From a virus (lineage: Duplodnaviria > Caudoviricetes), in the IMG/VR virus record IMGVR_UViG_3300046507_000447, positions 1,903 through 65,902 of that record: a stretch of DNA of 64,000 nucleotides; one strand, given 5' to 3'. A model generated the notes under the pieces. The model ran no database searches. It saw only the letters and a program-made list of their open reading frames with translations, and was not told the DNA's origin. A program made the position numbers and the translations under genes. Below are positions 4,445 to 64,000 of the stretch, piece after piece. Position 1 is the stretch's first letter. The number at the start of each line of letters is the position of its first letter.

Positions 4445-4638
4445 CCCAGCCTATCACCCTACGCGAGGCGCGCGACGCTGGTTTCTGTGTGAAAGGGCAG
4501 CGGGAGTTCCTGAATGCCTCGGGCGTGGATTGGCGAGACTATGTCCGCAATGGTATCGAGGTTGACCGCGCGCTTTCTCTCGACGGCTGGGCCGGCCCCA
4601 TAAACAAGATCCTGGCGAAGAGGGAAACCCGTGGGTAA
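4441..4638 (+). CDS. Small tail assembly protein
   Basis: C..G.R.F....G.DW..Y...GI motif; overlaps both neighbours. Confidence 0.7.
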   Translation: MTQPITLREARDAGFCVKGQREFLNASGVDWRDYVRNGIEVDRALSLDGWAGPINKILAKRETRG

Positions 4639-7126
4639 ATCTCAAAAGACCCCCTATCAGGAATACTATATCAGCTTCGACATGGCCGTCTGCCACGGCC
4701 CGATCGACCATTTGGTGCAGCTCTATTTCGAAGAGAAGCCGGTCCTACCCACGGACAATTCGGGGATCGCCGGCCCGTCCATCTGGCAGATCGATGAGCC
4801 TGATCTATTCGGCGGCAACGAGCGCGAAGGCGGTATCGTCGGCACGGCTGCATGGCGCATCGGTGACGCGACGCAAGTCCTGCCGCCCGAGCTGGCCCGC
4901 AAGATGCAGGTCTCGGCAAGCTTTGCCCCTGGCTATCGGGGGATCGCCTGCCTCGCACTCTACGGCGACGACAACAGCGACCGCGAAGGCGCAGTGGTAG
5001 CCGACAACAATCCGCGCGTGCCGTCGGTCTGGATGCGCCTGCGCCGGTACAGCGCCACGCTCGGCAACAACACGAACGTTATCCTCGCGCCGGTCCTGGA
5101 AGCCTACCTGGACTCCAACCCGGCTAACATCATCCACGAAGTGCTCACCAATCCATTCTGGGGGGCCGGGGCGAGCGCGGACGAGTTCGACGTGCCGAAG
5201 TGGCTCGCGGCGGCGCAAACGCTCTATGACGAGAAGCTCGGCCTTTCTGTCGTATGGACCCGGCAAGGCACGGTCGAGGATTTCGTCCAGGAGGTTCTCG
5301 ATCACATCAACGGCATGGTCTTCTTCGATCCCTATGCCGGCAAGGCCGTGCTGAAGCTGGTCCGCGACGACTATGACCGCGACAGCCTGCCGCTCTTCGG
5401 CCCCGACAATTGCGAGCTGACGAGCTACAAGGACTCACTCTGGGGCGAGACGGCCAACGAGGTTGTCGTCACCTGGACGGATCCGCTCGGCGAGCTATCG
5501 GGCGACGGTGCGAGCACGATCACCTATCAGGAGCCCGGTAACATCGCCATGCAGGGCGACGTCGTGTCGGTGAACCGCAACTATTACATGGTGCAGAATG
5601 CCGAGCTGGCGGCACGCCTTTGCATGCGCGAGCTTCAGACGGAGTCGGCCCCGCTGCGCAGCGTGAACCTGGAGGTCATGCGGTCGGCTTGGTTCAACCT
5701 GGACGGTTCCCCGATCCTTCCGGGCGACGTTGTCAAGTTCAAGTGGGAGCCCTACAATATCGAGCAGCTCTTCTTGCGCGTGCTCAATATCGATTGGGGG
5801 ACGGTCGATCAGTCTACTATCCAGGTAGAATTGATCGAGGATATCTTCTCGTTCCAGCTCGCCGAGTTCGCGCTTCCGGGTGGCCCCGAGTGGGAAGACC
5901 CCGGCCAGGATCCCGACAGCTCGGACTATCTCGCGATCCCCGCCAAGTTTTTCGCCGCGCCCATCTCGCTCATCCAGCAAGACTTCGGTGCGGACGCTGC
6001 GCCCTATCTCGCAGACGATAGCTACTACCCGCAGATCCTCATCGGCGTTTGCGTGACGCCGCTCCCTGGGAGCTATGACGACAAGGGGGCGCTGATCGCC
6101 GGCCAGCCCGATCTCCAGTCTTTCGAGATGTGGACCCCCGGCACGGACTTGACCGGCGCGGCCGGATGGGACGACCTCGGCGAGAAACAGCTCACGGGCA
6201 AAGGCCAGCTCAAGGTGCGGCTGGTCCAGGAGGTTATCAGCACGCTCTTCTTCGAAAACAAGATGGGCGGCGACGGCCCGCAGGTTGGCCGCTACGCGAT
6301 CATCGGAGACGGATCTGAGTACACAGATGAATGGATCCTTTTTGAAGAGAAGGTAGCCTCGAACACCTGGAGGGTTCGGCGCGGCGTGCTCGACACGGTC
6401 CCGCATATCTGGGAGGTCGGAACCTCGCTCTACTTCATCTCGGAGTCGTTCGATGCCTACGATACGGGCACCAGCCTCGCCTTCCACGACGAGCAGTATA
6501 AGCTCCAGCCGCGCACCAGCAAAGGCTTCCGCACTTTCGAAGGCGTGGTCCCGGTCACGACGAACCGACCCGATCGCCCGTACCTCCCATACCGTCCCGC
6601 GAACGTGCTCATGGCCGGCAAGATGTTCGGCCTGATCGATGAGAGCCAGTTGTTCGATCGCGAGACCTCAGCGGACGACACGAACGAGCCGCGCGAGCAT
6701 TGGGTCTTTCACATCACCTGGAGCCGGCGCAACCGCAAGCTGGAGGACAGCGTCGTCTACCGGTGGGATGATGCAGACCTCTTGCCCGAAGACGGCCAGA
6801 CGACCTCGATCCTGGTCTACGGTGGGCCAGACGCAACCGGGCCGCTGGTCGATCGCATCGACGGGATCACGGGCACGGACTACGATTTCTCGATCATCGA
6901 ACACACGGCGACGCTGACAAACCTGTCGCTGAAATTCATCTCGCAGCGCGACGGCTACGACAGCTTGCAGGGCCTTGTCCTGAACCTCGATCTCTATATC
7001 AAGGGCTTCGGTTCGGATTACGGTTGGCTCTACGGCGGCTGGCCGGCTTCGGCTCTCGCCACACACGTCGGCGCGGAGATCGAGCTGCCGGGGATCACCG
7101 TCGAAGGCGTCATTAACGAGGTTTGA
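4631..7126 (+). CDS. Tail tip / central tail hub protein
   Basis: LFGG..REGG, NPANIIHEVLTN..WG, RGVLDT, PYRPAN and GFG..YG..YGG motifs; extra C-terminal EIELPGI extension. Confidence 0.85.
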   Translation: MGKSQKTPYQEYYISFDMAVCHGPIDHLVQLYFEEKPVLPTDNSGIAGPSIWQIDEPDLFGGNEREGGIVGTAAWRIGDATQVLPPELARKMQVSASFAPGYRGIACLALYGDDNSDREGAVVADNNPRVPSVWMRLRRYSATLGNNTNVILAPVLEAYLDSNPANIIHEVLTNPFWGAGASADEFDVPKWLAAAQTLYDEKLGLSVVWTRQGTVEDFVQEVLDHINGMVFFDPYAGKAVLKLVRDDYDRDSLPLFGPDNCELTSYKDSLWGETANEVVVTWTDPLGELSGDGASTITYQEPGNIAMQGDVVSVNRNYYMVQNAELAARLCMRELQTESAPLRSVNLEVMRSAWFNLDGSPILPGDVVKFKWEPYNIEQLFLRVLNIDWGTVDQSTIQVELIEDIFSFQLAEFALPGGPEWEDPGQDPDSSDYLAIPAKFFAAPISLIQQDFGADAAPYLADDSYYPQILIGVCVTPLPGSYDDKGALIAGQPDLQSFEMWTPGTDLTGAAGWDDLGEKQLTGKGQLKVRLVQEVISTLFFENKMGGDGPQVGRYAIIGDGSEYTDEWILFEEKVASNTWRVRRGVLDTVPHIWEVGTSLYFISESFDAYDTGTSLAFHDEQYKLQPRTSKGFRTFEGVVPVTTNRPDRPYLPYRPANVLMAGKMFGLIDESQLFDRETSADDTNEPREHWVFHITWSRRNRKLEDSVVYRWDDADLLPEDGQTTSILVYGGPDATGPLVDRIDGITGTDYDFSIIEHTATLTNLSLKFISQRDGYDSLQGLVLNLDLYIKGFGSDYGWLYGGWPASALATHVGAEIELPGITVEGVINEV

Positions 7127-7889: not shown

Positions 7890-8644
7890 TGGTCACACTG
7901 GCAAACCCGAAACCGGGATATCCACAATTCGCGCGGACAAACTCCTCGCGGTATCTGCGCGCCTATATGCGCGGGCTCTGGGCGAAGGGGGAACAACGCT
8001 GGGACAAAGACGTTGACCAGAATTTTTCCTGGTTCGGCTACTGGACCCCGCAGCAAGCGATCTATCGTTTGGAGCTGGACACGCAGCAGATGCCGCCGTG
8101 GTACTCGCCTTACTATGTCAAGCTGATCTGGGATCCGAAGCATTCCATTCCGCAACCTCCTGGCGACGATACGGCAGTCGATACCGTCTATGAAGCGACA
8201 CGGACCTGGGCGTCCTGGGCGGCTCCGATCGAGGGTGCGTCGGCCTACATTTTCGCCGATCGGATGATGGTCATGTATTCGGGCGGCGAGTGGAAGCCCA
8301 TAGCTCGGCTAGTCGATCGGAAGTTCAATTGCGAGATTGCGATCTGCGCGGTCGGGCTCAAGGCCAACATGAAGATGGTGTCGAAGGTCATCGACCAGCC
8401 GATCCGGATCTACGCCCAGAACAACCAGAGCCGGATGCGCGGCGGCGACTATCGCTATACCTATCCGCTCCGCAAGAACGGCGTGGATATCGGCGTTGTC
8501 TTCCAGGGCAAATTCACCTCGGGGTGCTCGGTTGAATTCGACACGGACTTCGCCAAGGGCGATGTTCTCTCGATCGACTTCCCGGCCGGGGCAACCCGAG
8601 ATCAAACCTTCGCCGTCAGCTTGCTTGGGGAGTACCTCCTTTGA
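7889..8644 (+). CDS. Tail-associated protein
   Basis: Translationally coupled to the previous gene; similar 'P.EG..AY....M..YSGGEW' segment and beta-rich C-terminus. Confidence 0.55.
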   Translation: MVTLANPKPGYPQFARTNSSRYLRAYMRGLWAKGEQRWDKDVDQNFSWFGYWTPQQAIYRLELDTQQMPPWYSPYYVKLIWDPKHSIPQPPGDDTAVDTVYEATRTWASWAAPIEGASAYIFADRMMVMYSGGEWKPIARLVDRKFNCEIAICAVGLKANMKMVSKVIDQPIRIYAQNNQSRMRGGDYRYTYPLRKNGVDIGVVFQGKFTSGCSVEFDTDFAKGDVLSIDFPAGATRDQTFAVSLLGEYLL

Positions 8645-10959
8645 CCAGATACCTCACTGCGCAGCCGTTGCTCGCCGCGCCCTTCCTCCGCGTCTGGGAG
8701 AACTATGCCGGGGGCCTGCCGCCGAAAGAGCTGCCCTACTCGCCGGAAGTCGCCGGCCGGGTGATCGGGACGCGCTTCAGCCAGAACCTCGATCTCATGG
8801 CCACGGTGAGCAATTACCGGCGCGCTGACGTCGCGGGCATCGGCAACCCTTCGACGCCGGTCGCGCAGAACGCCGCCTACTACTTCTCGCCGGATGACAA
8901 CTATGTGCTCATGGGCGGCGACGCTACGGTCCTCCCCGTGGTGCTGCCGGCCCTGTTCAAACGGCGCGGCCCCTACTACATGCCGGTTGATGTCGGAGCC
9001 CTGCCGCTGCCATCGTCTGCTGTCGTCACGCGCGCGGCGCTGTCGAAGGGCGGCACGGTGATCGCGGTCTCGACCAGCGATGCGCCGAACGACGTCAAGG
9101 TCTACCTGAAGAACGGCGCGCTCGAAACCTGGGCGCTGGCGACGACGCTGCATCCGAACACGGACTCCGGAGCGGATCTCAGCGCCAGCCCGTTGAAGAT
9201 CGCCGACGACGCAAGCTTCCTATTCGTGGTCGGCGGCTTCGGCCTGGGCTCGATGTATGTCCTGACGAGCGGCGTCTACACGGCGGCCGGCCCAACCGCG
9301 ACGACGGCCTCCTGGATCCGCGACGTGGTCAAGCGGACGAACGGCGATTGGTGGGCCTTGCTCTCCGATACCGCGCTTGGCTTCAAAGGCCCGCCGCAGG
9401 TCTGGGGCTATATCGCGGGCGTCTGGACGGCGATCGACACGACGTTGACGTTCCCTGTTGCCAACGGGGTCGAGGCGGTCTCCTCGCATTTCGCACACGG
9501 CGGCGAGATCGTCGTCTTCACCGTCGCGCGCAACACGACGTTCGGCAGCAGCGCGGACCAGGAAAAATCCCTCGGGATTATCCACGCCTACAACGGCACG
9601 GACTACACGCTGATCACGGAGTATTCGGTGATCCCAGGCGGGGCGATCTGCCTGCTGGTTGCCGAGCCGAAAGTTTCTCCTGACGGGAATTTCATCGCCG
9701 TCGGTTGCAGGCTCTCCTCCAGCGCAGGCGGGCACACGCGGCCGATCTATGTCTACCAATGCACGGGCGGCGTGGGCACGTCCACGGTGACGCTGCTCCA
9801 CACCTTCACGTCTCCCGGCGACGTCGGGCAGCAGACCTTCCAACCCTACGGCTTCTCGCCGGATAACTCTGTACTCCATGCGCAGTGGAACGGCTCGGGC
9901 GGCGCGGCCGACGGCAACTTCCATCTGAACATGGTCACGCCCTGGGCCAACAACAATCCGATGAAGGAAGCGCCTGGAGTCGATAGCAAGCTGGTAACGA
10001 TCCCGGTCTATAGTCCGCACGGGCAGGTCGCGTTCACGCTGACGCCGGGAGGTCTCGTCGCCACGGTGAAAGACGGCTCGGGAAACTATATCGACATGAC
10101 GGTCCTGGAGGGCACGTTCATCTCGCTTTGGGATCGCATCGCAGGCGGCGAGGTCGGCCAGTTTGCCGAGCGCAACTTCATCCAGCATCCGCTCAATACG
10201 GTGATCACCGATCTACTGTTTTCACCAGGCAGTCACATCTTCACTTACCACGCGGAAAGGCCTGGGGATCCTGATCAGACGGGGCTCGGCCGCTACATCT
10301 ATGACATCCACATTCCGCAGTTCATCTCCTACCGAGGGGTCATCCGGAACGCGGGCGACCTCGCTTCGCTGCTGGCCTTCCATCCGGCCGAGACGCATTT
10401 CGTCACGGTCTTCAAGAACGCGGGCGGCAACAATATCCAGTTGTCCCACTTCACGAATTCGATCTACGATTTCACCCATCTCGATACCGACGGCGTGGAA
10501 TACGGGCCGCCCGCGTTCTCGCCTTGCGAGGTCGTCATCGTGGCTCACGGCGGCGATCAGCCCTATTCCGCGTTCAATCATCTCTCGTCGCCTGATAGCC
10601 TTGTCGAGCAGACCTTGCCGATCATGGATTGGGACGAGACCTCGAACATCAACGCCGTGGTTTTCACGCCCGATTGCGACGGCCTGATCATCGTCACCGA
10701 CGACAACATCCAGATCCGGGATCCGGCAGGCGGCGGCGTGCTGGACGAGCAGCCGGCCGAAGTTCCCGATCCGCAGATCCTGCCGGATCCCGATGACCCG
10801 AGCCAGATCATCATCGCCCCGAGCAACGGCGGCGGGGGTGGCGGTGGCGGGGGTGACGGCGGCCCGAGCTGGGGAGTCGATGTGCCTTCGAAGACGGTGG
10901 ATAACCTTTCATACTTGCCATTCGTCAGCATCTCAGTGACCTTCCGGACATGGCGATAG
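8641..10959 (+). CDS. Beta-propeller virion protein, candidate receptor-binding protein
   Basis: Many FSPD/SPDG/FTPD blade-like motifs; Pro-Asp and poly-Gly linker near the C-terminus. Confidence 0.65.
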   Translation: MTRYLTAQPLLAAPFLRVWENYAGGLPPKELPYSPEVAGRVIGTRFSQNLDLMATVSNYRRADVAGIGNPSTPVAQNAAYYFSPDDNYVLMGGDATVLPVVLPALFKRRGPYYMPVDVGALPLPSSAVVTRAALSKGGTVIAVSTSDAPNDVKVYLKNGALETWALATTLHPNTDSGADLSASPLKIADDASFLFVVGGFGLGSMYVLTSGVYTAAGPTATTASWIRDVVKRTNGDWWALLSDTALGFKGPPQVWGYIAGVWTAIDTTLTFPVANGVEAVSSHFAHGGEIVVFTVARNTTFGSSADQEKSLGIIHAYNGTDYTLITEYSVIPGGAICLLVAEPKVSPDGNFIAVGCRLSSSAGGHTRPIYVYQCTGGVGTSTVTLLHTFTSPGDVGQQTFQPYGFSPDNSVLHAQWNGSGGAADGNFHLNMVTPWANNNPMKEAPGVDSKLVTIPVYSPHGQVAFTLTPGGLVATVKDGSGNYIDMTVLEGTFISLWDRIAGGEVGQFAERNFIQHPLNTVITDLLFSPGSHIFTYHAERPGDPDQTGLGRYIYDIHIPQFISYRGVIRNAGDLASLLAFHPAETHFVTVFKNAGGNNIQLSHFTNSIYDFTHLDTDGVEYGPPAFSPCEVVIVAHGGDQPYSAFNHLSSPDSLVEQTLPIMDWDETSNINAVVFTPDCDGLIIVTDDNIQIRDPAGGGVLDEQPAEVPDPQILPDPDDPSQIIIAPSNGGGGGGGGGDGGPSWGVDVPSKTVDNLSYLPFVSISVTFRTWR

Positions 10960-11005: not shown

Positions 11006-11425
11006 ATGGCCATCGTCCATATCGATACCGACTCTTCAATCCTGCTGCTCGATACCTTCTGCGCGCGGCTTAACGGCGGCACGCTGGTCATTTACGACGG
11101 CGCGATGCCCGCCGACGTGAGCACGGCGATCACCACGCAGAAGGATCTCGCGACCTTCGATCTGGCGAGCCCCGCTTTTGCCGATGCAACCGCGACCAGC
11201 ACGGGCGCGGAAGCTCTGCTGGAGACCGTTCCGTCTGTCGTCGCTGACGATACTGGCAACGCTGTCTTCGGCCGGTTCTTCGACAACGCAGGCACGGCTC
11301 GACTGGACGCCGACTGCTCCATCGCTTCCGGATCCGGCGCGATCAAGCTGAACGCGGTCGCGGTTGCGGCGAACGTCAACCTCGCCGTGATCTCCTTCAA
11401 GTTCACCCAGCGCAAGTCCAGCTAA
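11006..11425 (+). CDS. Small virion/fibre subunit, paralogue 1
   Basis: Shares GGTL.IY.G..P....TA ... F ... G.A.F.R..D..G...D......G.G pattern with 11438 and 13316. Confidence 0.75.
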   Translation: MAIVHIDTDSSILLLDTFCARLNGGTLVIYDGAMPADVSTAITTQKDLATFDLASPAFADATATSTGAEALLETVPSVVADDTGNAVFGRFFDNAGTARLDADCSIASGSGAIKLNAVAVAANVNLAVISFKFTQRKSS

Positions 11426-11437
11426 GAGGGCAACAGA

Positions 11438-11869
11438 ATGACCACTTCCATTTCCGCCGAACGCGCCAAGGTCATGCTTGACGCCGGCAATGTCCTGGTG
11501 AACGGCGGCACGATCGAGGTCTACCAGGGCACGCGCCCTGCGACGGTCGATACCGCGATCACCTCCCAGGTTCTGCTCGGCGTCTTCACGATCGGCGCGA
11601 CGGCGTTTGCCGCTGCCACCCAGATCACGGGCTATTCCACGGCGACCGCCAACACGATCGCCCCGGTGGACGCCGACGTGACCGGCACGGCGCAGTTCTA
11701 TCGCGCCAAGAAGTCCGACGGCTCGCCCTGGGAAGACGGCAAGATCACCGACACGGCGGGCGACGGCGACATGAAGATGGCGAACGTCGCCGTGGTCGAG
11801 GACGTCGAAATGAAGATCGTCTCCTGGACTGAGTATATGCCCTACGCCGCAGACCTGCCGGCCCCTTGA
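11438..11869 (+). CDS. Small virion/fibre subunit, paralogue 2
   Basis: GGTIEVYQGTRPATVDTA ... GTAQFYR ... DGKI....GDGDM. Confidence 0.75.
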   Translation: MTTSISAERAKVMLDAGNVLVNGGTIEVYQGTRPATVDTAITSQVLLGVFTIGATAFAAATQITGYSTATANTIAPVDADVTGTAQFYRAKKSDGSPWEDGKITDTAGDGDMKMANVAVVEDVEMKIVSWTEYMPYAADLPAP

Positions 11870-11872
11870 TCC

Positions 11873-13306
11873 ATGACAACCGGAAACCCCCACCTCGCGT
11901 GCTGGACGGCGCTGGACGGAATTCTCCGTCTGTATGAGCTTGACTCGAACAACGTGTTCGTCCAGATCGCGTCGTCCAGTTGCGCGCACTCGGGATCTGT
12001 CCCGAGCCTGCCGTTCATCTCGTTCGGGGTTTCCGACACACGCCTGATCGATTACCGCAACGACAACCCTGGCGCCACGAGCGGCCAGAAATTCGAGCTG
12101 CGCGACTTCGATCTCGCGATCAAGGATGTCAAGAACTATGGCCAGAATGTCGGGACGACCGACGGCTGGTTTGTCGGCGCGGCGATGCCGGCCTTCAACG
12201 TCTTCACGGTGCTGAACAAGGCGCAGTCGGCGAACTATAATATCGTGGTCGCTGACGCCTTCGCCAATGACGGTTCGCTCCCCGTGACGACGCGGCAGAA
12301 CGCCGTCGCCTTCTCGCCGAATGCCCAGGTCGCCGCCTTCGCGAATGACCTCGGCTTGAACATCCTGAAATACAACGGGACCGGCATCAACTACGGCGAG
12401 CCGGTCTACGATCCGACCTTCTTCGATAAGGGGATCGAGTATCCCCTGTCGGCGCTTGGCTGGTCTCCGGACAGCAAGTATCTGGTCTCGGGCAAGAAGC
12501 TGACATCGGGCATCCAGATCTGGGTTCGCTCGGGCACGGACATCGGCCTTGCTTTCGAGCTGGACGAGCCGACCTCGGGTGACATGGGCGGCGTCCAGGC
12601 TATCGCGTGGCGCTTCGACGGGCGCTATGTCGCGGTCTCCTATAACAACGCAGGCGTGTTTACTACGGTCATATACTACCGTCGTGGCGATTACCTGATC
12701 AAGGGCCAGACGATCTCGAATTTCGGCAGCATGCTCAACTGGCTGGCCGACGGCTCGTACCTCCTGGACGCCGGCCAGAAGAAGGCTCAGCGTTATGACG
12801 GTGACGGGGCTATGTCCTCGGCCAACGGCATGATGACGAACCTCCAGAGCGCGGTCGGCGTGGCGGCGATCTCCGGGCAGGTCAAGAGCGCGCAGCCGCT
12901 GCCCTCGATCTACGATGTGGCCCTGAACGCCTTCACCATGCAGACCGTCCACACGGCGAACATCAAGGTCATGTTGGTCAAGGACGCGATCTACGACCAG
13001 ACGGCGACGAACCTCACTGCGCTCCTGGCGAAGGAAGTCTCGGGCAGCAACTGGCCGGCAGGCGGCAAAGTCCTTACCGGCGTCAGCTACGACGCATCCG
13101 TCGCCGGGACGGTCAAGATCAAATTCGACAACGTCACACAGATAATTACCTCGCCGACCCTTACGTTGAACGGTCTGGTCTTCTATGACGCAACCAATTC
13201 GATGCCTCTCATGTTCGTCGGCTACAGCTCGAACGTGACGATCGACTCGACCAAAACAATCAGCATCGAAGGCGCGGCCGGAAATCTGGCACGCTTCCTT
13301 GCATAG
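11873..13306 (+). CDS. Beta-propeller protein fused to a C-terminal virion/fibre-subunit domain
   Basis: WD-like AFSPN/WSPD/AWRFDG blades, then IKVMLV...EVSGSNWPAGGKVL domain. Confidence 0.65.
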   Translation: MTTGNPHLACWTALDGILRLYELDSNNVFVQIASSSCAHSGSVPSLPFISFGVSDTRLIDYRNDNPGATSGQKFELRDFDLAIKDVKNYGQNVGTTDGWFVGAAMPAFNVFTVLNKAQSANYNIVVADAFANDGSLPVTTRQNAVAFSPNAQVAAFANDLGLNILKYNGTGINYGEPVYDPTFFDKGIEYPLSALGWSPDSKYLVSGKKLTSGIQIWVRSGTDIGLAFELDEPTSGDMGGVQAIAWRFDGRYVAVSYNNAGVFTTVIYYRRGDYLIKGQTISNFGSMLNWLADGSYLLDAGQKKAQRYDGDGAMSSANGMMTNLQSAVGVAAISGQVKSAQPLPSIYDVALNAFTMQTVHTANIKVMLVKDAIYDQTATNLTALLAKEVSGSNWPAGGKVLTGVSYDASVAGTVKIKFDNVTQIITSPTLTLNGLVFYDATNSMPLMFVGYSSNVTIDSTKTISIEGAAGNLARFLA

Positions 13307-13315
13307 GGGGCCATC

Positions 13316-13741
13316 GTGACGACAAGCGTTCCTTCCGCCGAAGCTCTCGCCGTTTGCAATCGCGAGGTTGACAAGCTCGACGCCGGCAGTGGATCCGGCA
13401 CGCTGAAGATCTATGGCGGCACGCGCGCCGTCAATTCTGACACGGCCCCAGGAACGACCGCGCTGGCGACCATGACATTCGCCAAGCCGGCTTTCGGTGA
13501 CGCGGCCATGTCCGGACAGGTTGCCATCGCCACGATGAACGCCGCGCCGAACTTCACCGTCACCAATGCCGGCACAGCGACGTGGTTCCGCACCTTCGAC
13601 AGCGCGGGCAACGTGGTCTATGACGGCGATGTCACGGCGGCCTCGGGCTCGGGCGATCTGAAGCTGTCTCTGCTGGCCCTGCCGGCCGGCAAGACCATGA
13701 CGCCTGTCGCTTTGACCTTCCGCGTTCCGACCGGTTCGTAA
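13316..13741 (+). CDS. Small virion/fibre subunit, paralogue 3
   Basis: GTLKIYGGTRA..SDTA ... GTATWFRTFDS.G...DGDV....GSGDL. Confidence 0.75.
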   Translation: MTTSVPSAEALAVCNREVDKLDAGSGSGTLKIYGGTRAVNSDTAPGTTALATMTFAKPAFGDAAMSGQVAIATMNAAPNFTVTNAGTATWFRTFDSAGNVVYDGDVTAASGSGDLKLSLLALPAGKTMTPVALTFRVPTGS

Positions 13742-13752
13742 GGAGAAGATCC

Positions 13753-15540
13753 GTGGCTGGCGGCTTTAACGCAACGATCAACTTCGACACGATCCCGCGC
13801 AACTACGACCAGCAGGGCCGCGAGTGGTTGCCCATTCCTGGCTTCGGCGGCATGCCGAATTTCATCCAGAACTCCTTGACGTCTGGCGGCTATTCCATGG
13901 ACAGCCGCCCGAACCTGGGCGGTTTGAGCGTCGCGGATAACGACCTGATCGCCGGCACGCAAGACTTCGAAGTCAATGTGATTTTCTATCTGGAGGACAC
14001 TGTCAACGAGCAGATCGTCCTCGCCAATCGCGGCGGCGCGTCGGGGGATCCGGGCGGCAACGTTGATGGCCAGTTCATTATCGAGGTCTACAACAACACG
14101 TTCGTCTTTTACCTCGGCTCGACTGGCTTCGCGCAGACTGGCGGCCCGGTCCCAGGCTGGAACAACCTGCTCCTGACGCGAACCGGCACGCATTTCGTGG
14201 CCAAGAACAACGGCACGCAGTTCGCCACCTTCGACACGGCAAACAACTTCCCGTTCTCCCGCTGGACCGTCGGCCAGCTCGGCGTCGCCGTGGTCAACCT
14301 GCCGCTGCTCGGTTGGGTGGATTACTTTTCCGTCAGCGGGAACGTCCAGGTCAACGGCGCGTCCGTCTGGCCGGGTTTCCGATCGACCGGCTATATCGAC
14401 CTGTCCGACCCCGAATACCAGACGCAATCCGTCGGCCTGAAGTCGGGCATTATCGAGCTGCGGCCGAGCGACATCGCAGTCAACGCCCTGAACAGCGGCC
14501 AGTTCGCGCTCATCAAATCCCGTGCGCCGGCCGTGCGCGCCCGCATCCGGACGGACGGCAACCAGATCGAGATGAAGTCCGGTCTGCCCGCCGTGCGCGC
14601 CAAGATCCTCGGCGACGTCGTCTCGATCATCAAGTCCGGTTTGCCCGCTGTTCGCGCGCGCATCGTCGCGCAGCAGCCCCACGGCTTGACCGGCAACTCG
14701 CTGCTGCCTGCCGTGCGCGCCCGCCTCGTCGCCGCGACTCCGATCGCCGTCAACATTGAAAGCGCCCTGCCTGCCGTGCGCGCCAGCATCGCGGGCTCGG
14801 CGGCAATCGCTGCGGATATCAAGTCCGGTCTGCCTGCGGTGCGCGCGAGCGGTTATATCGCGACGCCGGCCCTAGCTATGATCGAGAGCGTGCTGCCCGC
14901 CGTGCGCGCCAGGATCGTCGGCTTGGCCGGCTACGGGATAGACGTTCATTCGGTGCTGCCAGCCGTCCAGGCGCGGATCGTCGGCGCGGCACAGATCGCC
15001 GTCAAGATCGTCTCGAACCTGCCGGCCGTGCGTGCGCAGATCATCGCGCAGTCCGTCAACATCACCGACGTCCAGTCCCGGCTCCAGGCCGTGCGGGCTC
15101 GCATCGTCGCGGGCATCACGACCCAGATCAACGGCAATGTCGAGCTGCCCGCGTTCGGCGCGAGCGGCGAGATCCTCGTCGTCAACCAGATCATCGGCGA
15201 CCTGGAGCTGCCGGGGATCAGCGGCGAGGGCATGATCATCCAGTTCATCGCCGTCAGTGGCAATGTCGAGCTTCCTGGTCTGGGCGTCGAAGGCGAGATC
15301 TCGTCCTTCATGAGCATCAATGGCGATGTCGAGCTACCTGCGTTCGGTGTGACCGGCGAGATCATGCAAATGCAGACGATCGTCGGCGAGATCGAGCTGC
15401 CGGCTTTCGGCGTGGTCGGGCTCTTGCGCGTCGGCGACCAGCCTGTCATTCACACGGGATCCCAGCCGGATCTCGCCACGGACTCTCCCGGCGTCGGCGG
15501 GGGGATCTATCTCGGAACCGACGAAATAAGGATGGGCTAA
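13753..15540 (+). CDS. Repeat-containing virion protein (lectin/LamG-like N-terminus plus two ~20-aa repeat arrays); candidate fibre scaffold
   Basis: N-terminal DF.V...GWNNLLLTR.G...GWVDYF pattern; 10 S.LPAVRA repeats then 5 G..ELP repeats. Confidence 0.7.
   Translation: MAGGFNATINFDTIPRNYDQQGREWLPIPGFGGMPNFIQNSLTSGGYSMDSRPNLGGLSVADNDLIAGTQDFEVNVIFYLEDTVNEQIVLANRGGASGDPGGNVDGQFIIEVYNNTFVFYLGSTGFAQTGGPVPGWNNLLLTRTGTHFVAKNNGTQFATFDTANNFPFSRWTVGQLGVAVVNLPLLGWVDYFSVSGNVQVNGASVWPGFRSTGYIDLSDPEYQTQSVGLKSGIIELRPSDIAVNALNSGQFALIKSRAPAVRARIRTDGNQIEMKSGLPAVRAKILGDVVSIIKSGLPAVRARIVAQQPHGLTGNSLLPAVRARLVAATPIAVNIESALPAVRASIAGSAAIAADIKSGLPAVRASGYIATPALAMIESVLPAVRARIVGLAGYGIDVHSVLPAVQARIVGAAQIAVKIVSNLPAVRAQIIAQSVNITDVQSRLQAVRARIVAGITTQINGNVELPAFGASGEILVVNQIIGDLELPGISGEGMIIQFIAVSGNVELPGLGVEGEISSFMSINGDVELPAFGVTGEIMQMQTIVGEIELPAFGVVGLLRVGDQPVIHTGSQPDLATDSPGVGGGIYLGTDEIRMG
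14512..15425 (+). repeat. Two adjacent coding tandem arrays with ~60-bp period
   Basis: 10 copies of S-x-LPAVRAR-like, followed by 5 copies of G-[ND E]-[VLI]-ELP-[AG]-[FIL]-[GS]-x2-G. Confidence 0.9.
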
Positions 15541-16252: not shown

Positions 16253-17482
16253 ATGAACCTCACAACCCTATATGCGGCGATCGGCCAGAGCGATTTCAAG
16301 AAGTCGCTTTCGCCCGCCCAGCGCAACACGATCGAGCTGATCGTCAACCAGTGGAAAGTCTTCGGCTACCCCTCCGACAACGCCCTAGCCTATGTCCTGG
16401 CGACTGCGCAGTGGGAGACGGCCAACAAGATGGTCCCCGTGCGCGAGACCCTGGCATCCACCGACAAGAGCGCGATGGCGATCCTCGAACGCGACTTCAA
16501 GGCCGGCAAGCTGAAGTGGGTCAAGACGCCTTACTGGCGCACGGGTTACTTCGGTCGCGGTATGGTGCAGCTCACCCACGAGGACAACTACAGCGGGCCG
16601 ATCCGCGACGCCGTGATGGAGACGTTCGGCAAGGCATTCGATATCCACAAGGATCCATCGCTGCTCATCACGAACCCCGACATCTCGTGCTTTGTCCTGA
16701 TCGAGGGCATGACAAAAGGTGTCACCCTCAAGGCGGACTTCACGCCGTGGGCGTTGGAGACGTTCATCAACGACAAAAAGGTGGACTATCTCGGCGCGCG
16801 GAAGACCGTGAACCCCGGCGACAAGAGCAGCGTCACCAAGATCAAGGATCTCGCGTTGCTCTGGGAGGAGGCTATCCGGGAAGCCCGTCGTGATGACGAC
16901 GAGCAATTCCTGGGACCGGCAGGCCCCGACGTGAAGGGCCAGGGTCTCTATGACGGGCGCGTGCATTCCGAGGTTCGTGACGTCCAGGAGTTGCTCGCCA
17001 AGAAGCTCTACCCGGTCGGCCAGATCGACGGCAAGTGGGGCGACCGAACGGCAGCAGCGGTTCTCGCGTTCCGCCGCAAGAACGGACTACCACTCACCGA
17101 CGAGGACATCACCGATAAGGACTTCCTGGCGGCCCTGGCCGTGGGTGATGAGATGGAGCTTCCGACCTCCCGTACCGAGGCGACGGCGGCGGATCTGCGC
17201 GCGCAGGGGTCCAAGACGATCGCGATAGCCGATAAGCTCAAGTGGGTCGGCTCGCTCGCGATCGGCGGCGGCGGTCTGCAAGCGGTAAACTCTGGGCTCG
17301 ATACCGTCGATCAGGTGAACACCACGCTCTCGCGGGTCCACGATGTTACCGCGACGGTAGTGAAATTCCTCCAGGACAACTTCCTCTTCCTGGCGGCCGG
17401 CATCGGTGCGGTCGTGGTGTGGCAGGCGATCCGGATCACCAAGGCGAAGGTCCAGGCTCACCGTGAAGGGAAGGACGTCTAA
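16253..17482 (+). CDS. Endolysin: GH19-like domain, peptidoglycan-binding domain, C-terminal hydrophobic segments
   Basis: LAYVLATAQWET, YFGRGMVQLT..NY; VRDVQ.LL....IDGKWG.RT..AV.AF....GL. Confidence 0.85.
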   Translation: MNLTTLYAAIGQSDFKKSLSPAQRNTIELIVNQWKVFGYPSDNALAYVLATAQWETANKMVPVRETLASTDKSAMAILERDFKAGKLKWVKTPYWRTGYFGRGMVQLTHEDNYSGPIRDAVMETFGKAFDIHKDPSLLITNPDISCFVLIEGMTKGVTLKADFTPWALETFINDKKVDYLGARKTVNPGDKSSVTKIKDLALLWEEAIREARRDDDEQFLGPAGPDVKGQGLYDGRVHSEVRDVQELLAKKLYPVGQIDGKWGDRTAAAVLAFRRKNGLPLTDEDITDKDFLAALAVGDEMELPTSRTEATAADLRAQGSKTIAIADKLKWVGSLAIGGGGLQAVNSGLDTVDQVNTTLSRVHDVTATVVKFLQDNFLFLAAGIGAVVVWQAIRITKAKVQAHREGKDV

Positions 17483-19732: not shown

Positions 19733-19976
19733 CTTTCCAATCCCCTATGCCACCTGTCTTTTTCGGACGGATCCGCAGCGCATAGGCGAACTGTTTCGGC
19801 AGGGGTCTATTGAACTGCCGCCTCTCGCCGGGATCCGCGTTGAAGATACCCAGCAGGGAGGAAATAGCGCCGTTCGGTCTGACGCCGACGCGGTAGACGA
19901 GGCGCGGGTTTCCCAGCGCCAGGACATGGTCATGCGTGCGCCGGTTGACGGCCCAATACAGAACGCTCGTGCTCAT
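19716..19976 (-). CDS. Hypothetical protein
   Basis: ATGA overlap, GGAGG RBS. Confidence 0.6.
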   Translation of the reverse strand: MSTSVLYWAVNRRTHDHVLALGNPRLVYRVGVRPNGAISSLLGIFNADPGERRQFNRPLPKQFAYALRIRPKKTGGIGDWKDEHRH

Positions 19977-20638
19977 ACAACCTCCATAAGCTCCGGGAAG
20001 AGGAGCGGATCGTTAAACTTGTCCTTCTCGTCACCATGCACAGACCAGACGCCGTGCTGCTGCCGGCCGAACATCTCGAAATAGGGACCGTCCACAAGGC
20101 GCTCGATCAGCGGAAAGATCTCATCCGGCTTGCGGCTGTGCTCGCGGCGCTTGGCGGCGATGAAACGCGGCACGTCCTTGCCGATGCGCTTCGGCCGGCC
20201 GACGGTATTCAGGAAGCATCGTTCCGCGTCCTGCTCTGTCTCGCCGAAGTATGTCTCGTAAACCATTTCCGCGTTCGCCCTGGTCCAGTGGCCCGTGCCC
20301 TGGAAGAACGTCTTGCCGTCCTTGTTGAGCTTGCCCCAGGTGAACCCGACCGTCTTGAATTTGAAGCCCCAGGCCTTCACAACTTCAAGGGCCAACTCGA
20401 CATGGCTGTCGATGATCCACATGAATAGCACGCAATCCTTAGCGGCGAGGTCTTGGACAGGGAGCGCCTTCAGCTCGGGGATCGTCATGGTTTTGTAGTG
20501 GCGATCGGGCGACCGGCCCATGCCCTTGGCCGAGCGCGTGAGGTATTTCCAGGGCGGATCGCAGACGATCACCCGATACTTTTTGTAGCCGAACCCCTTG
20601 AACGGGCCGTCCTGGATCAGTTGCGTTTTCCCCTGCAC
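19973..20638 (-). CDS. MT-A70 family adenine methyltransferase
   Basis: DPPW, HY.TM, LFMW, WGF..KT..F.W.K, G.G.WTR.N.E and REHSRKP motifs. Confidence 0.9.
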   Translation of the reverse strand: MQGKTQLIQDGPFKGFGYKKYRVIVCDPPWKYLTRSAKGMGRSPDRHYKTMTIPELKALPVQDLAAKDCVLFMWIIDSHVELALEVVKAWGFKFKTVGFTWGKLNKDGKTFFQGTGHWTRANAEMVYETYFGETEQDAERCFLNTVGRPKRIGKDVPRFIAAKRREHSRKPDEIFPLIERLVDGPYFEMFGRQQHGVWSVHGDEKDKFNDPLLFPELMEVV

Positions 20639-57636: not shown

Positions 57637-58689
57637 ATGGACCCGACAGTATATGACAGCGCAACGCTCCTCGGCGTGTTCTGGTCTGACGAATACATGA
57701 AGCCGCCAGAGAACTACTGGCTGAACAACTTCTACACGACTGAAGTGCAGTTCACGACTGAAGAGATCGACCTTTCGAAGATCACCGATATTCGCAAGCT
57801 CGCGCCTTTCGTCGTTCCGACACTCCAGGGCACGCCGATCTATTCCGCCGCTGAACGTCTCGCAACCTTCGCGCCGGCTTATATCAAGGCGAAAGATCCG
57901 GTCTCGGCAACTCGCATGATCCGCCGCGCTGCGGGTTACGGCGAGCTTGGCCGTGGTCGCACGGTTCTCACCCCGAAACAGCGTTACGACACGATCGTCG
58001 CCGACGTCATTCGCCAGCATCGTAATGCGGTCGAGCGTCGTTGGGAATGGATGGCTTCCAAGGGCATCCTGGACGCGGCGATTACCCTCAAGGACGACCG
58101 TTACCCGGAACGCATCGTCAACTTCGGTCGCGCTTCTTCCAACACGGTTGTCCTCACGGGCGGCGCGCGTTGGGGCCAGACCGGCGTCGATATCCTGGAC
58201 AGCCTCCAGGGCTTCTTGAACATCGTGCGCAACGCGAAGTTCGGCGGCCCCGCCAATCGTCTGACGATCGGCGCGAACGTGTGGTCTGTCATGCGCAAGG
58301 ACCAGGGCATCCGCGAGTTCCTGAACACGCAGTATAAGCTCGGGGCCAACATCAACCTGAAGCTCGGCTTGCTCCAGGGCCTCCAGGTCGAATACGTCGG
58401 CAATATCGAGACGATCGAAGTCTACGTTTATTCCGACTATTACCAGGATCCGGACGGCACGGTGCAGCCCTACATGTCGCCCAACGACATCGTGCTCACT
58501 GGCCCCTCGGTTTCCGGCGTTCGTGCGTTCGGCGCGATCCAGGACATCGACGCGCAGCTCCAGGCTCTGCCGGTCTTCATGAAGCTCTGGAACGAGAAGG
58601 ATCCGTCCGCGACGCTGATCCTCACTCAGTCGGCGCCCATGATGGTCCCGATCAACCCGAACGCTACGCTCAAGGCGACAGTCGTCTAA
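57637..58689 (+). CDS. Major capsid protein (lambda E family)
   Basis: LAPFV.P...G; F.PAY.K.K; RRWEWMA; QSAP..VP...NA. Confidence 0.92.
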   Translation: MDPTVYDSATLLGVFWSDEYMKPPENYWLNNFYTTEVQFTTEEIDLSKITDIRKLAPFVVPTLQGTPIYSAAERLATFAPAYIKAKDPVSATRMIRRAAGYGELGRGRTVLTPKQRYDTIVADVIRQHRNAVERRWEWMASKGILDAAITLKDDRYPERIVNFGRASSNTVVLTGGARWGQTGVDILDSLQGFLNIVRNAKFGGPANRLTIGANVWSVMRKDQGIREFLNTQYKLGANINLKLGLLQGLQVEYVGNIETIEVYVYSDYYQDPDGTVQPYMSPNDIVLTGPSVSGVRAFGAIQDIDAQLQALPVFMKLWNEKDPSATLILTQSAPMMVPINPNATLKATVV

Positions 58690-58768: not shown

Positions 58769-59299
58769 ATGGTCTCCAAAGTAATTGCCCTCCACACGAT
58801 CCACCTGACAATCAAGCCGGGTGTCGCCGCTAACCGCGTGACCGGTGAGGCCGCTATCGCCCCCGTGGTCAAGGAAGTCCCTGGCGGCACGGCTTTTACC
58901 CCGCGCACGCAGACAGAATTCAACGAGCTGATGAAGCTCGGCGCCATCCGCCTGCCGGGTGAAGACGAGTCGATCGACAGTTTCCGCACGCTCGAACTGG
59001 ACGACGATGACCGCGAGGTTAAGTCGCGCCCCGGCAAGACGGATGAAGAAATCCGTGCGGCCCAGGCCCAGGCTGACGCCGACCAGAAGAAGCGCGATGC
59101 TGCTGCTGCGAAGGTCAAGGCTGACGCTGAAGCCAAGCTGAAGGCGCAGTCCACCCCCAAGGTCAAGCCGGCCAAGGAAAAGGCCGCTGATCCGCTGAAG
59201 GCCGCCAAGGAAGGCGACGTCGGCGGCACGGACGAAGGCAAGACCGGTGAGCAGCAGTCGTCCGGTGAGCAGTCTGGCGACAACGACGACGTGGTCTAA
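58769..59299 (+). CDS. Post-capsid protein (FI-like position)
   Basis: GAGG RBS; V..G..F...EL..LGA motif followed by a charged low-complexity tail. Confidence 0.65.
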   Translation: MVSKVIALHTIHLTIKPGVAANRVTGEAAIAPVVKEVPGGTAFTPRTQTEFNELMKLGAIRLPGEDESIDSFRTLELDDDDREVKSRPGKTDEEIRAAQAQADADQKKRDAAAAKVKADAEAKLKAQSTPKVKPAKEKAADPLKAAKEGDVGGTDEGKTGEQQSSGEQSGDNDDVV

Positions 59300-59814
59300 T
59301 GGCCGGATTTCGCGAGATCAAAGATCGCGCGCGCAGGGATCTCCACACAGCGTTGGAGGTTCCTGCGTTTTATATTGATCCGCTGGGCGAAGCCGCCCTC
59401 GGCGTGACCGTTCGTGTCCACAATAGCTGGCTCGCCAAGGGCGATGTTCCCGGCACAAGTTTCCGCTTCGGCGAGATCCGCGAAGACACTCCCAAGCTCA
59501 TCTTCTTGTTTGACCAGATCGACCCCGAACCTTTGGCCGTGGTGATGATCTCGGCGATCGAAGGCTATCGTGTTCGGGTTCCGGACCCCCGTTATCTCCA
59601 GACGGTCATGGCCGGGGCGACCGCGCTGGACCCGACTGAGCTGGCCCTTTACCCCAATCCCGATATGGGCATGGTCATCTATGGGAATGTCGAGCTGCCG
59701 GGGATCGGCGCGGACGAGCCCGGTGATCTCCCAGGCATCGGCGTCGAAGCAATGCTCGTTGTCTTCAACCTGATCGACGGCGAGGTCGAGCTACCGCTCA
59801 TCTCGGGAGACTGA
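59299..59814 (+). CDS. Head closure / head-tail joining protein with a C-terminal ELPG-repeat extension
   Basis: F.EIK.RARRDLH..L.VPA.Y N-terminus; tail GNVELPGIG..GDLPGIGVE..GEVELP. Confidence 0.75.
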   Translation: MAGFREIKDRARRDLHTALEVPAFYIDPLGEAALGVTVRVHNSWLAKGDVPGTSFRFGEIREDTPKLIFLFDQIDPEPLAVVMISAIEGYRVRVPDPRYLQTVMAGATALDPTELALYPNPDMGMVIYGNVELPGIGADEPGDLPGIGVEAMLVVFNLIDGEVELPLISGD

Positions 59815-62651: not shown

Positions 62652-62935
62652 GAGCGCGCGTCAGCCTCCTTCTGGAGGCCGGCCACCCCCTGGCCCCACA
62701 CTACCCGATCGGAATGGTTTGGGATGAAGTGGGGCTCGTCACCGAACGCCGTAACGGGCAGATGGTATCCGAGTCGGAGTTGATGATGCGAACGCTCATC
62801 GCCTTCTGGGATGGAAAGAAGGGCGGCAAGCTGCGCAAGGAATTGCTCGACTCGCTTAATTCGGAAATGGTCCCTCATGCCCTTGGGGGGCATCAAACTG
62901 ATGAGGGAATAACGGATGGCGAACGGGAGCCGTGA
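62552..62935 (+). CDS. -1 frameshift extension of the tail chaperone (gpT-like)
   Basis: Slippery A AAA AAT TTG; the -1 frame is open to 62935 and reads LRARVSLLLEAGH..A.HYP.G.VWDE. Confidence 0.75.
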   Translation, partial: KKFAGANLRRSGEGSSVRGRLSEPSLDGWLLELRARVSLLLEAGHPLAPHYPIGMVWDEVGLVTERRNGQMVSESELMMRTLIAFWDGKKGGKLRKELLDSLNSEMVPHALGGHQTDEGITDGEREP

Positions 62936-64000
62936 CGTCCAACTGGTCATCAAGGCCAAGGACGACGCAAGCAAAACAGTCGAAGCCATCGCGAAGGCCC
63001 TTAACGACCTGACGTCGGGCATTACCTCGACCGAAAAGTCGATCGACAAGGGCGACACTGCCTTCACCAAACTCGGCAAGACCCTCGGAACGCTGGACAA
63101 GGCGCTCCGGGGCGTGTCTTCGACCGACCGGCTCGCCAAGCAATTCGACGCGGCGACGGTATCCGCGAACAACCTGGACAAGTCGATCGGCGATACCGAG
63201 AAGAAGGTATCCGAGCTGGCCGATCGCATGGCCCAGGCTGCGACCGCGACTGCGACCTACGAGAAAAATCTCAAGGATACGACGGCGGCCCTGGAGCGTG
63301 AGAAGACCTCGCTCAAGGACGCCCAGGCCGCGCACAAACAGTTGAACGGCAACCTCAAGGAAGCCGCCACGCAGCGCGCGACCTTGGAAGCCGCCGAGAA
63401 GAAACTGACGGCGGCGATAGATCAGCAGCAAGCGAAGATCGCCGGCTACGAGGCCAAGATTGCAGGGCTCAGCCAGGAGATCTCGCAGACGGCCGAGCCC
63501 ACCAAGCGGCTGGTCAACAACCTGACGGCGGCGACGACCGGCCTGGACAAGTATGTCGCCAAGCTCAGCGCGTCCGAAGCCGCTCTCGCCGCGACACGGC
63601 AGGGCGTGCTCGCGACTGCTGAAGCCGAAGTCGATCTCACGCAGAAGCTCACGGCCAGCGAAACCGCGCTTGCAGGACAGGCCGCCAAGATCGGCGAGCT
63701 GACGGCTGCGAAGAAAGAGCAGCAGAGCGTCACCAAGTCCGTGGCGCAGGCAGAGCAGCAGTTGGCCCGCGAGTATCAGCAGGCCACGCAATCGCTCGCG
63801 CAGCAGCAGACGGGCGCGGCACGGGCCAGCGAAGCGCTGCTCCAGATTGCCACGGCGTCGGAGCTGGCAAAGGATGCAACGGCGGATCTGGCGAAGGCGG
63901 CGACCGGCCCCTTGCGCGAGGCCTTGAGCACGCAGCAGTCCGTTGTTGCTCGACTGAAGAATTCCTATGTGGACTTCGGACAGTCCCTGAAAACCCTGGC
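62916..64000 (+). CDS. Tape measure protein, N-terminal part (runs off the window)
   Basis: MANGSRDVQLVIKAKD.ASK start; Ala/Gln/Lys coiled coil; GAGGG RBS. Confidence 0.88.
   Translation, partial: MANGSRDVQLVIKAKDDASKTVEAIAKALNDLTSGITSTEKSIDKGDTAFTKLGKTLGTLDKALRGVSSTDRLAKQFDAATVSANNLDKSIGDTEKKVSELADRMAQAATATATYEKNLKDTTAALEREKTSLKDAQAAHKQLNGNLKEAATQRATLEAAEKKLTAAIDQQQAKIAGYEAKIAGLSQEISQTAEPTKRLVNNLTAATTGLDKYVAKLSASEAALAATRQGVLATAEAEVDLTQKLTASETALAGQAAKIGELTAAKKEQQSVTKSVAQAEQQLAREYQQATQSLAQQQTGAARASEALLQIATASELAKDATADLAKAATGPLREALSTQQSVVARLKNSYVDFGQSLKTL

Follow-up and report, generated by a model that had tools for sequence, protein, structure and literature searches.

The window analysed here is a stretch of 64,000 of the 65,902 bases of an uncultured virus record in IMG/VR (IMGVR_UViG_3300046507_000447), which carries direct terminal repeats and is rated complete. 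At the far end of its tail module, after the tail-tip gene and before the lysis genes, lies a cassette encoding three small paralogous proteins (termed beads below), a propeller-like protein of 477 amino acids (aa) and a 595-aa protein with a long array of 21-aa repeat units, a candidate rope for the beads. The cassette comprises the following elements, numbered along the window.

11006..11425, plus strand: bead paralogue 1, 139 aa, net charge -7 (phrog_3758, E 2e-23; family hidden Markov model [HMM], E 6e-40)
11438..11869, plus strand: bead paralogue 2, 143 aa, net charge -8 (phrog_3758), directly 5' of the 477-aa gene
11873..13306, plus strand: 477-aa protein with a propeller-like N-terminal part and a C-terminal domain (phrog_24741, phrog_644)
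13316..13741, plus strand: bead paralogue 3, 141 aa, net charge -1, directly 5' of the gene for the 595-aa candidate rope
13753-15540, plus strand: 595-aa protein composed of a head, ten basic units, five acidic units and a C-terminal tail
13753..14511, plus strand: head, residues 1-253, net charge -11, a possible ConA-like/LamG jelly roll
14512..15132, plus strand: ten basic 21-aa units, residues 254-460, of the x-S-x-LPAVRAR kind (candidate rope, part 1)
15133..15447, plus strand: five acidic 21-aa units, residues 461-565, of the G-x-h-ELP-[AG]-h-[GS] kind (candidate rope, part 2)
15448..15540, plus strand: C-terminal tail, residues 566-595, ending in GGGIYLGTDEIRMG, of a class common to other repeat proteins

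The three paralogues of about 140 aa at 11006, 11438 and 13316 had been recognised in a sequence-only reading of this DNA, and they are borne out as open reading frames (ORFs) whose products are 28-32% identical in pairwise comparison and all match phrog_3758 ('virion structural protein') at E values of 2e-23 to 1e-25. According to a genome search, the virus possesses exactly these three copies of the family. In the Protein Data Bank (PDB), paralogue 3 alone matched 9rkv_A (E 3.5e-14), and a profile built on 97 of the at least 1156 family hits matched 9rkv_A (E 3.5e-32) and the 147-aa chain 44nx_B (E 1e-13) over nearly the full length, in the latter case across positions 2-140. On this profile homology, the three paralogues belong to the bead family of gp40 of phage A1002 and of the garland protein of phage 7-7-1, and hence to a family whose members are known to act as dimers mounted on another protein's extended chain. 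The profile search of the PDB gave no further chains, and T4 gp8, A511 gp105 and the arm-segment protein of phage 812 were absent from the matches. Neither DUF2190 nor any other Pfam family was detected in the 97 members (0/97), and Pfam Gp80 (PF23140) matched none of them and none of the window paralogues. As a query in IMG/VR, paralogue 3 retrieved no relative.

The array of the 595-aa protein was confirmed as ten plus five LP-centred repeats with a period of about 20 aa. Its central dipeptides (LP, once AP and once LQ) stand at residues 258, 278, 297, 318 and so on to 549, with unit spacings of 20 and 19 followed by twelve of 21, and the top lag in a periodicity analysis of the protein was 21 (identity 0.22). 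The abrupt change from basic to acidic repeats with retention of the LP core, also part of the sequence-only reading, is equally real apart from the two dipeptide exceptions: the summed net charge is +16 over the ten basic units and -13 over the five acidic ones, with the switch at residue 461. The positive charge of the basic units, set against the acidic character of paralogues 1 and 2 (-7 and -8), counts in favour of the chain-like fibre considered below. Tandem Repeats Finder detected no repeat at the DNA level, which argues that the units are old and diverged and were not recently duplicated. Each unit shows two runs of alternating hydrophobic residues. Based on an alignment of 25 rows, AlphaFold2 (AF2) modelled the acidic units with a predicted local distance difference test score (pLDDT) of 80-87, with one strand of 14 residues and one of 2 residues per unit, and the basic units with a pLDDT of 26-58 and two strands of about 7 residues per unit; a single-sequence AF2 prediction of the whole protein was uninformative (pLDDT 40). 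With the repeat model as query, Foldseek returned no match at E<=0.001 from the PDB or BFVD (best E 0.1, template modelling score <=0.29). The prediction of complexes between paralogues 1-3 (97-row alignments) and residues 398-595 scored 0.00 in both runs, with an uncertain partner fold, and as a modelling result it provides no answer, neither for nor against the binding of beads to the rope.

The 21-aa proline-centred repeat is, as judged from profile matches, a widespread family. The 595-aa protein as a whole has no Pfam family, no tblastn match in 50,697 phage records and, in a word-indexed protein search, no match other than itself, and in the ESM-Atlas its repeat part resembled only unnamed viral clusters (0.88-0.89). 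An exhaustive HMMER search retrieved 78 cluster representatives at E<=0.001, 11 of them at <=1e-10, and all of these matches fall within residues 179-595, nearly all within 245-595, with the best agreement in the acidic part. The relatives range from 164 to 3996 aa in length, and in them, too, LP or related dipeptides recur every 21 residues; exact unit counts are not given for them because a single-unit HMM was too weak and the lag-21 estimate of the span overcounts. Four of the ten top relatives scanned carry propeller-type Pfam signals ahead of the repeats. The C-terminal tails of the repeat proteins sort into at least four classes, and the class of the 595-aa protein recurs in the P0016, P0017, P0025, P0030, L014 and L015 proteins (L numbers denote loci). 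A second unit type, 'APM[AG]DA', likewise with a 21-aa period, was seen together with a basic-then-hydrophobic C-terminal tail (KRR..h.h) in 7-7-1 (locus tag 000109, L001 9980-11407), in L016 and in several metagenomic proteins.

The head had been called lectin-like, and this label is weakly supported by protein-language-model likeness: in the ESM-Atlas, the look-alikes are viral ConA-like/Laminin_G_3 clusters (0.93-0.95) and unnamed viral clusters (0.96-0.97), and ten of the matching clusters (0.93-0.97) carry Laminin_G_3. There was no Pfam match for the head, the single-sequence fold was poor (pLDDT 40), and none of the 78 hits of the repeat protein represents a homologue of it except for two partial overlaps.

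The association of bead and repeat genes was analysed with the bead HMM and a repeat HMM built from the best-aligned block of the alignment, both of which were run on the six-frame ORFs of every locus (repeat threshold E<=0.01). Five of the 18 phage records matched by paralogue 3 were examined, and in four of them the repeat HMM matched a gene adjoining the bead gene, i.e., in 7-7-1 (340 aa, E 1e-10), in Atu_ph07 (1438 aa, E 3e-33), in RHEph12 (two genes, 699 and 1026 aa) and, weakly, in Vibrio 501E54-1 (E 0.003). In the reverse approach, both IMG/VR loci found through repeat proteins carry a bead gene on the same strand at most 2 kilobases (kb) upstream; three of the five repeat-protein queries returned no IMG/VR locus. 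One further locus, L013, duplicated another in the set and was left out. Among 14 IMG/VR loci collected via another bead protein, five were HMM-positive (L014, L018, L022, L023 and L024), and in L015 and L016 the repeat was recognised from a lag-21 period and from the units themselves; every repeat gene in these loci lies downstream of the bead genes on the same strand. In most loci examined, which come from many unrelated phages, a repeat gene follows closely downstream of the bead genes. The whole cassette recurs in L014, where three tandem bead genes and a 477-like gene accompany the gene of a 701-aa repeat protein that has a propeller-like front and about 14 'GPF' units. In L009 (2845-9987), a bead gene is accompanied by genes for a sulfatase-family protein of 441 aa (Pfam E 5e-26) and a repeat protein of 826 aa, and the cassette sits between the portal and head-tail joining genes; an enzyme can thus be part of the cassette, and the head/neck module can be its place, which suggests that it is mobile and not bound to one virion site. 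In L010 (8000-9298), the bead domain forms the C-terminal half of a 238-aa protein, and the next gene (187 aa) shows a weak match (E 7.5e-4) to Pfam Gp80, the bead of fibre I of phage GP4, so that two bead families may adjoin each other.

Repeat units also occur outside the array, at the C-termini of other proteins of the same phage. The proteins concerned, the last of them with no more than a possible unit, are the following.

4631..7126, plus strand: J-like tail-tip protein, 831 aa (phrog_1101, E 2e-153 over residues 3-802)
59299..59814, plus strand: 171-aa neck-region protein, whose residues ~129-171 (nucleotides 59683-59811) correspond to about 2.5 acidic-type units
8641..10959, plus strand: 772-aa propeller-like protein with a weak WD40 match, a poly-Gly linker and a C-terminal LP-type strand at nucleotides ~10903-10956

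A scan of the six-frame translation of the window for the acidic motif [IVL]-ELP-[AG]-[FILV]-[GST] recovered the five array units, the C-terminus of the tail-tip protein and the extension of the 171-aa protein, and nothing else. The two occurrences outside the array compare with an expectation of 0.023, and none of 300 shuffles gave two or more. The last ~19 residues of the tail-tip protein (nucleotides 7067-7123) constitute one acidic-type unit, ..IELPGITVEGVI.., and since tblastn matches to this protein in other phages stop at residue 788-805, the unit lies beyond the part shared with homologues and is an add-on. The 171-aa protein, which is encoded between the major capsid gene and the Neck1/tail-terminator genes, has a 104-aa core matching phrog_4858 and an extension with the acidic units, and it is the next-best match of the repeat HMM in the window (E 0.025). 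In L016, one unit type ('APMGDA') ends three proteins that alternate with bead genes; in the whole genome of 7-7-1, scans with three simple motifs revealed no unit tags in frame on other proteins. The 772-aa protein ends in nine Gly within GGGGGGGGGDGG and a subsequent tail of about 35 residues with ..YLPFVSISVTF.., and this strand, judged by eye, may be a single variant repeat unit on a flexible tether.

The 477-aa protein had been read as a beta-propeller fused to a different small virion domain. The ORF is present as described, and phrog_644 matches at residues 361-444; the propeller label is weakly supported by sequence, with WD40-type Pfam matches below the curated cut-offs (E 0.002-0.015), a match to phrog_24741 over the full length (E 4e-43) and a GenBank homologue annotated as WD40/YVTN. 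Homologues of this protein adjoin bead genes in RHEph12, Atu_ph07, 7-7-1, L014 and L015, and the 477-aa protein is a conserved partner gene of the cassette. The position is preserved as well, as the closest relatives of paralogue 2 adjoin a 477-like gene on its upstream side in 7-7-1 and RHEph12.

Several solved virion structures bear on the role of such a cassette. Entry 44NX is the fibre dimer gp40/gp41 of the Pseudomonas podophage A1002, in which eleven dimers sit in tandem on a rope of ~300 Å that belongs to gp39, the nozzle-rope protein, dimers 1-7 consisting of gp40 (147 residues) and dimers 8-11 of gp41, and each dimer makes an augmented beta-sheet with the rope (PMC13730344). The window shares with A1002 a homologous bead (profile E 1e-13), more than one bead paralogue and a long candidate rope stretch; the two rope zones of A1002 (7+4 dimers) may be compared with the 10+5 units, and beta-sheet augmentation would be common to both. 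In A1002, a podophage, the nozzle protein includes the rope, at whose end stands an Ig-like domain, whereas the virus studied here is a siphovirus with a separate candidate rope protein, a possibly ConA-like head, a strict 21-aa repeat and three paralogues. The word 'repeat' does not occur in the available text of the A1002 paper (PMC13730344), and no sequence similarity was found between the A1002 rope and the 595-aa repeat profile. Fiber I of the Ralstonia podophage GP4 consists of five gp80 dimers on a separately encoded rope, and gp11 of VP1 is grouped with these chain-like fibres (both as reported in PMC13730344). GP4 thus resembles the present proposal in that small dimers sit on a rope with its own gene, but it has five dimers and one bead type, and Pfam Gp80 is absent from the window paralogues. 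Our literature searches, none of which was aimed at 21-residue repeat ropes, found chain-like fibres only in the A1002 paper.

The closest solved homologue is 9RKV, the 141-aa garland protein gp014 of the flagellotropic Agrobacterium myophage 7-7-1, homodimers of which ring the distal baseplate and touch the long and short tail fibres (PMC12796354). In its sister phage Milano, also an Agrobacterium myophage, two proteins with about 30% identity, gp125 and gp127, make up the garland, and they have the T4 gp8/A511 gp105 fold; proteins of this type are described as 'beads on a string' with an extended chain across each dimer, and the string of the Milano garland is stated to be unidentified (PMC10811340). 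The gene order of bead, bead, 477-like gene and 21-aa-repeat protein is shared with the window, but the 7-7-1/Milano garland is a closed zig-zag ring round the distal ends of tailspikes and short fibres on the baseplate of a contractile tail. In 7-7-1, mass spectrometry has placed counterparts of the beads, of the 477-aa protein and of the repeat protein in the virion (PMC3517404); these virion proteins were mapped onto the cassette by mass. The 477-aa and repeat-protein counterparts have no entry among the solved structures and are therefore free to play a rope or fibre role; a single pairwise comparison of the 595-aa protein with the 7-7-1 long fibre gave no similarity. The cassette was also considered as a baseplate garland of the Milano/7-7-1 type and, despite the homologous garland protein, rejected as such: the window encodes a siphovirus-type tail (tape measure, tail assembly proteins and a J-like tip) with no sheath or wedge families among the proteins scanned. 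In Staphylococcus phage 812, arm-scaffold linkers join six gp8/gp105-like arm-segment dimers into continuous seven-stranded sheets (PMC13433997). The likeness of the 812/A511 arms, in which an arm scaffold or BW3 carries dimers of the arm-segment protein or gp105, lies in linkers that complete sheets between successive small dimers, and the difference in folded domains between the linkers in place of the uniform repeat found here; no sequence similarity to them was detected.

Overall, the bead homology, the gene linkage and the tags fit together most simply if the cassette encodes a chain-like ('beads-on-a-rope') fibre, a reading that we favour with guarded confidence. The three paralogues would form homo- or heterodimers, and the array of 15 units would be the rope, whose beta-strands would complete the sheets of one bead dimer after another, by analogy with A1002, GP4 and phage 812. 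The number of beads, and hence the length of the fibre, would follow from the number of units. One subunit per repeat, i.e., 15 slots in a ratio of 10:5, as put forward in the sequence-only reading, is a guess; since beads are dimeric in every solved case, 15 units could carry about 7 to 15 dimers. Host binding would fall to the lectin-like head and the two propeller-like proteins, and the single-unit tags would be sites at which beads fasten the fibre to the tail tip and perhaps to the neck. Where the units turn from basic to acidic, the type of bead on the rope may change as well, in the manner of gp40 and gp41 in A1002. The general idea of a scaffold-plus-subunits fibre thus gains from bead homology, linkage and the A1002 architecture, while the strict address code of paralogue to repeat type that went with it is weakened by L014 (three beads) and L016 (two beads), which have a single unit type each. 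This kind of fibre is already known from the fibres of A1002, GP4 and VP1, the Milano/7-7-1 garland and the 812/A511 arms. New are the siphovirus background, a separate candidate rope protein with a lectin-like head, the strict 21-aa unit that comes in two charge classes, a set of three paralogues for the beads, the reuse of rope units as tags on further virion proteins, and a repeat family that travels with bead genes.

A number of observations weigh against the chain-like fibre. The 595-aa protein and its repeat profile matched no chain in the PDB, the A1002 rope included, and the identity of the rope rests on linkage and analogy because no solved chain matched. The linkage has gaps: no repeat-HMM match was found beside the bead gene of Vibrio CKB-S1, 3 of the 14 bead loci (L019-L021) lack a repeat gene, L017 is borderline, and L025 is a 4.5-kb fragment. 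In L026 (1379-2812) and L027 (3226-4440), the protein after the bead genes has a period of 24 aa (lag-24 identity 0.34-0.35), which may be a second rope period. The gene context was examined for only ~22 of the at least 1156 bead-family proteins, and no string is named for the 7-7-1 garland in the available text of PMC12796354. The single unit type of L014 and L016 belongs to the same side of the balance. Self-folding of the repeats had been named as a finding that would speak against subunit binding. The acidic units pack on each other in the AF2 monomer, which fits an autonomous beta-repeat shaft, and the Foldseek matches of the repeat model, although all non-significant, are nearly all beta-helix or solenoid proteins; the basic units with their low pLDDT do not add to this.

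The latter points lead to the strongest competing explanation, a stalk in which the 21-aa units would form, on their own, a beta-solenoid or a hairpin-stack shaft bearing the head, with a length of about 7 nm if each unit forms one coil, and in which the beads would act solely as connectors or as a garland, at the ends of the shaft or around the tail tip, and would not be present once per unit. Apart from the models, it is favoured by the two alternating-hydrophobic runs per unit, by repeat proteins as long as 3699 and 3996 aa with nine matched stretches each, and by the beads of 7-7-1 and Milano, which ring fibre tips and form no linear fibre. It leaves unexplained why repeat genes regularly follow bead genes and why single units end the tail-tip and neck proteins, and a monomer predictor that is given no partners could pack rope strands together. 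We therefore grant the stalk an appreciable chance, clearly below that of the chain-like fibre.

The tags could also be accounted for by mutual stacking of the units of the 595-aa, tail-tip, neck and 772-aa proteins into a shared beta-structure, whereby the tags would dock the lectin-headed protein directly and the beads would have no role in that joint. The recurrence of one unit type in several proteins of one phage, here and in L016, and the predicted pairing of acidic units agree with this, but no precedent was found in the literature consulted, the simple motif scans of 7-7-1 gave no tags, and the linkage to bead genes would have no reason; we regard such a donation of units as improbable. 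The least probable alternative, in our estimate, is that repeats and tags are incidental by-products of recombination between fibre genes and that the paralogues act elsewhere, e.g., in capsid decoration, with no physical link. PHROGs files phrog_3758 under 'head and packaging', one source labels a member of the bead family DUF2190, and the L009 cassette lies between portal and head-tail joining genes. Against this stand the solved structures of two family members in tail fibres and a baseplate garland, the complete lack of Pfam DUF2190 matches among the 97 members, and a linkage that is specific in strand and order.

The genomic setting of the candidate chain-like fibre is that of a siphovirus, as indicated by PHROG matches of the window proteins scanned. 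Besides the genes mentioned above, the layout includes the following.

12-2153: tape measure (PHROG match), followed by two tail assembly proteins
57637-58689: major capsid protein (PHROG match), with large terminase, portal and protease also matched
16253-17482: endolysin (PHROG match)

Neck1, tail terminator and tail tube genes were recognised in the same way, and no sheath or baseplate wedge families were present among the proteins scanned. The remaining 1,902 bases of the 65,902-base record fall outside the window; an ORF matching the tape measure (3-2153) runs past its 5' end and an open frame (62916-63998) past its 3' end. A megablast search of the region against phage records gave no match. 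On the minus strand at 19973-20638, a 221-aa ORF contains a DPPW motif, which we take to be typical of MT-A70-type adenine methyltransferases.

The capsid and tail-tip proteins are nearest to those of Achromobacter, Rhodobacter, Synechococcus S-ESS1, Xylella Sano and Salmonella phages, with identities of at most 56%, so that the virus is 'Chi-like' only in a broad sense. The reference to flagellotropic phage Chi in the sequence-only reading accordingly stands for the broad group, to which the siphovirus belongs with Chi and YSD1 by capsid and tail-tip similarity, and fails for the fibre. The Chi fibre is likely polymerised from one protein species (PMC10811340). A Chi-type flagellotropic fibre was looked for and rejected, as no homologue of the Chi/YSD1 fibre was found among the 253-aa, 251-aa and 595-aa proteins: of the two encoded downstream of the tail-tip gene, the one of 253 aa has its only matches in Loktanella and Mesorhizobium phages and none in Chi-like ones, and the one of 251 aa matches nothing. 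The search for a Chi-type fibre homologue, and the window analysis in general, gave no indication of flagellotropism.

A wider reading, which we offer tentatively, is that the 21-aa unit is a general 'rope code' of the bead family throughout tailed phages, with charge-switched sub-arrays and tags that address different paralogues in the present virus, and that a 21-aa-repeat protein of the type of 7-7-1 gp108 is the Milano string. Together with the second bead paralogue and the propeller protein gp107, a gp108-type protein may form the capsid fibres of 7-7-1, a suggestion that is just as doubtful. Tags on tail-tip, propeller and neck proteins would then let one bead family wire lectin- or propeller-headed parts to several virion sites, and concrete candidates would be at hand for two gaps in the published record, the string of the Milano garland and the capsid-fibre proteins of 7-7-1.

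Chain-like fibres are a very recent structural discovery made by cryo-EM in a few podophages, with a related form in myophage baseplates, and the cassette would extend them to siphoviruses. The 21-aa proline-centred unit would provide the rope with a recognisable signature, so that fibres of this kind could be predicted from sequence in metagenomes, for which at least 1156 bead proteins and 78 repeat-protein clusters are candidates. If the number and type of units indeed set the length of the fibre and the order of its beads, this would represent a simple and engineerable route to fibres of chosen length.

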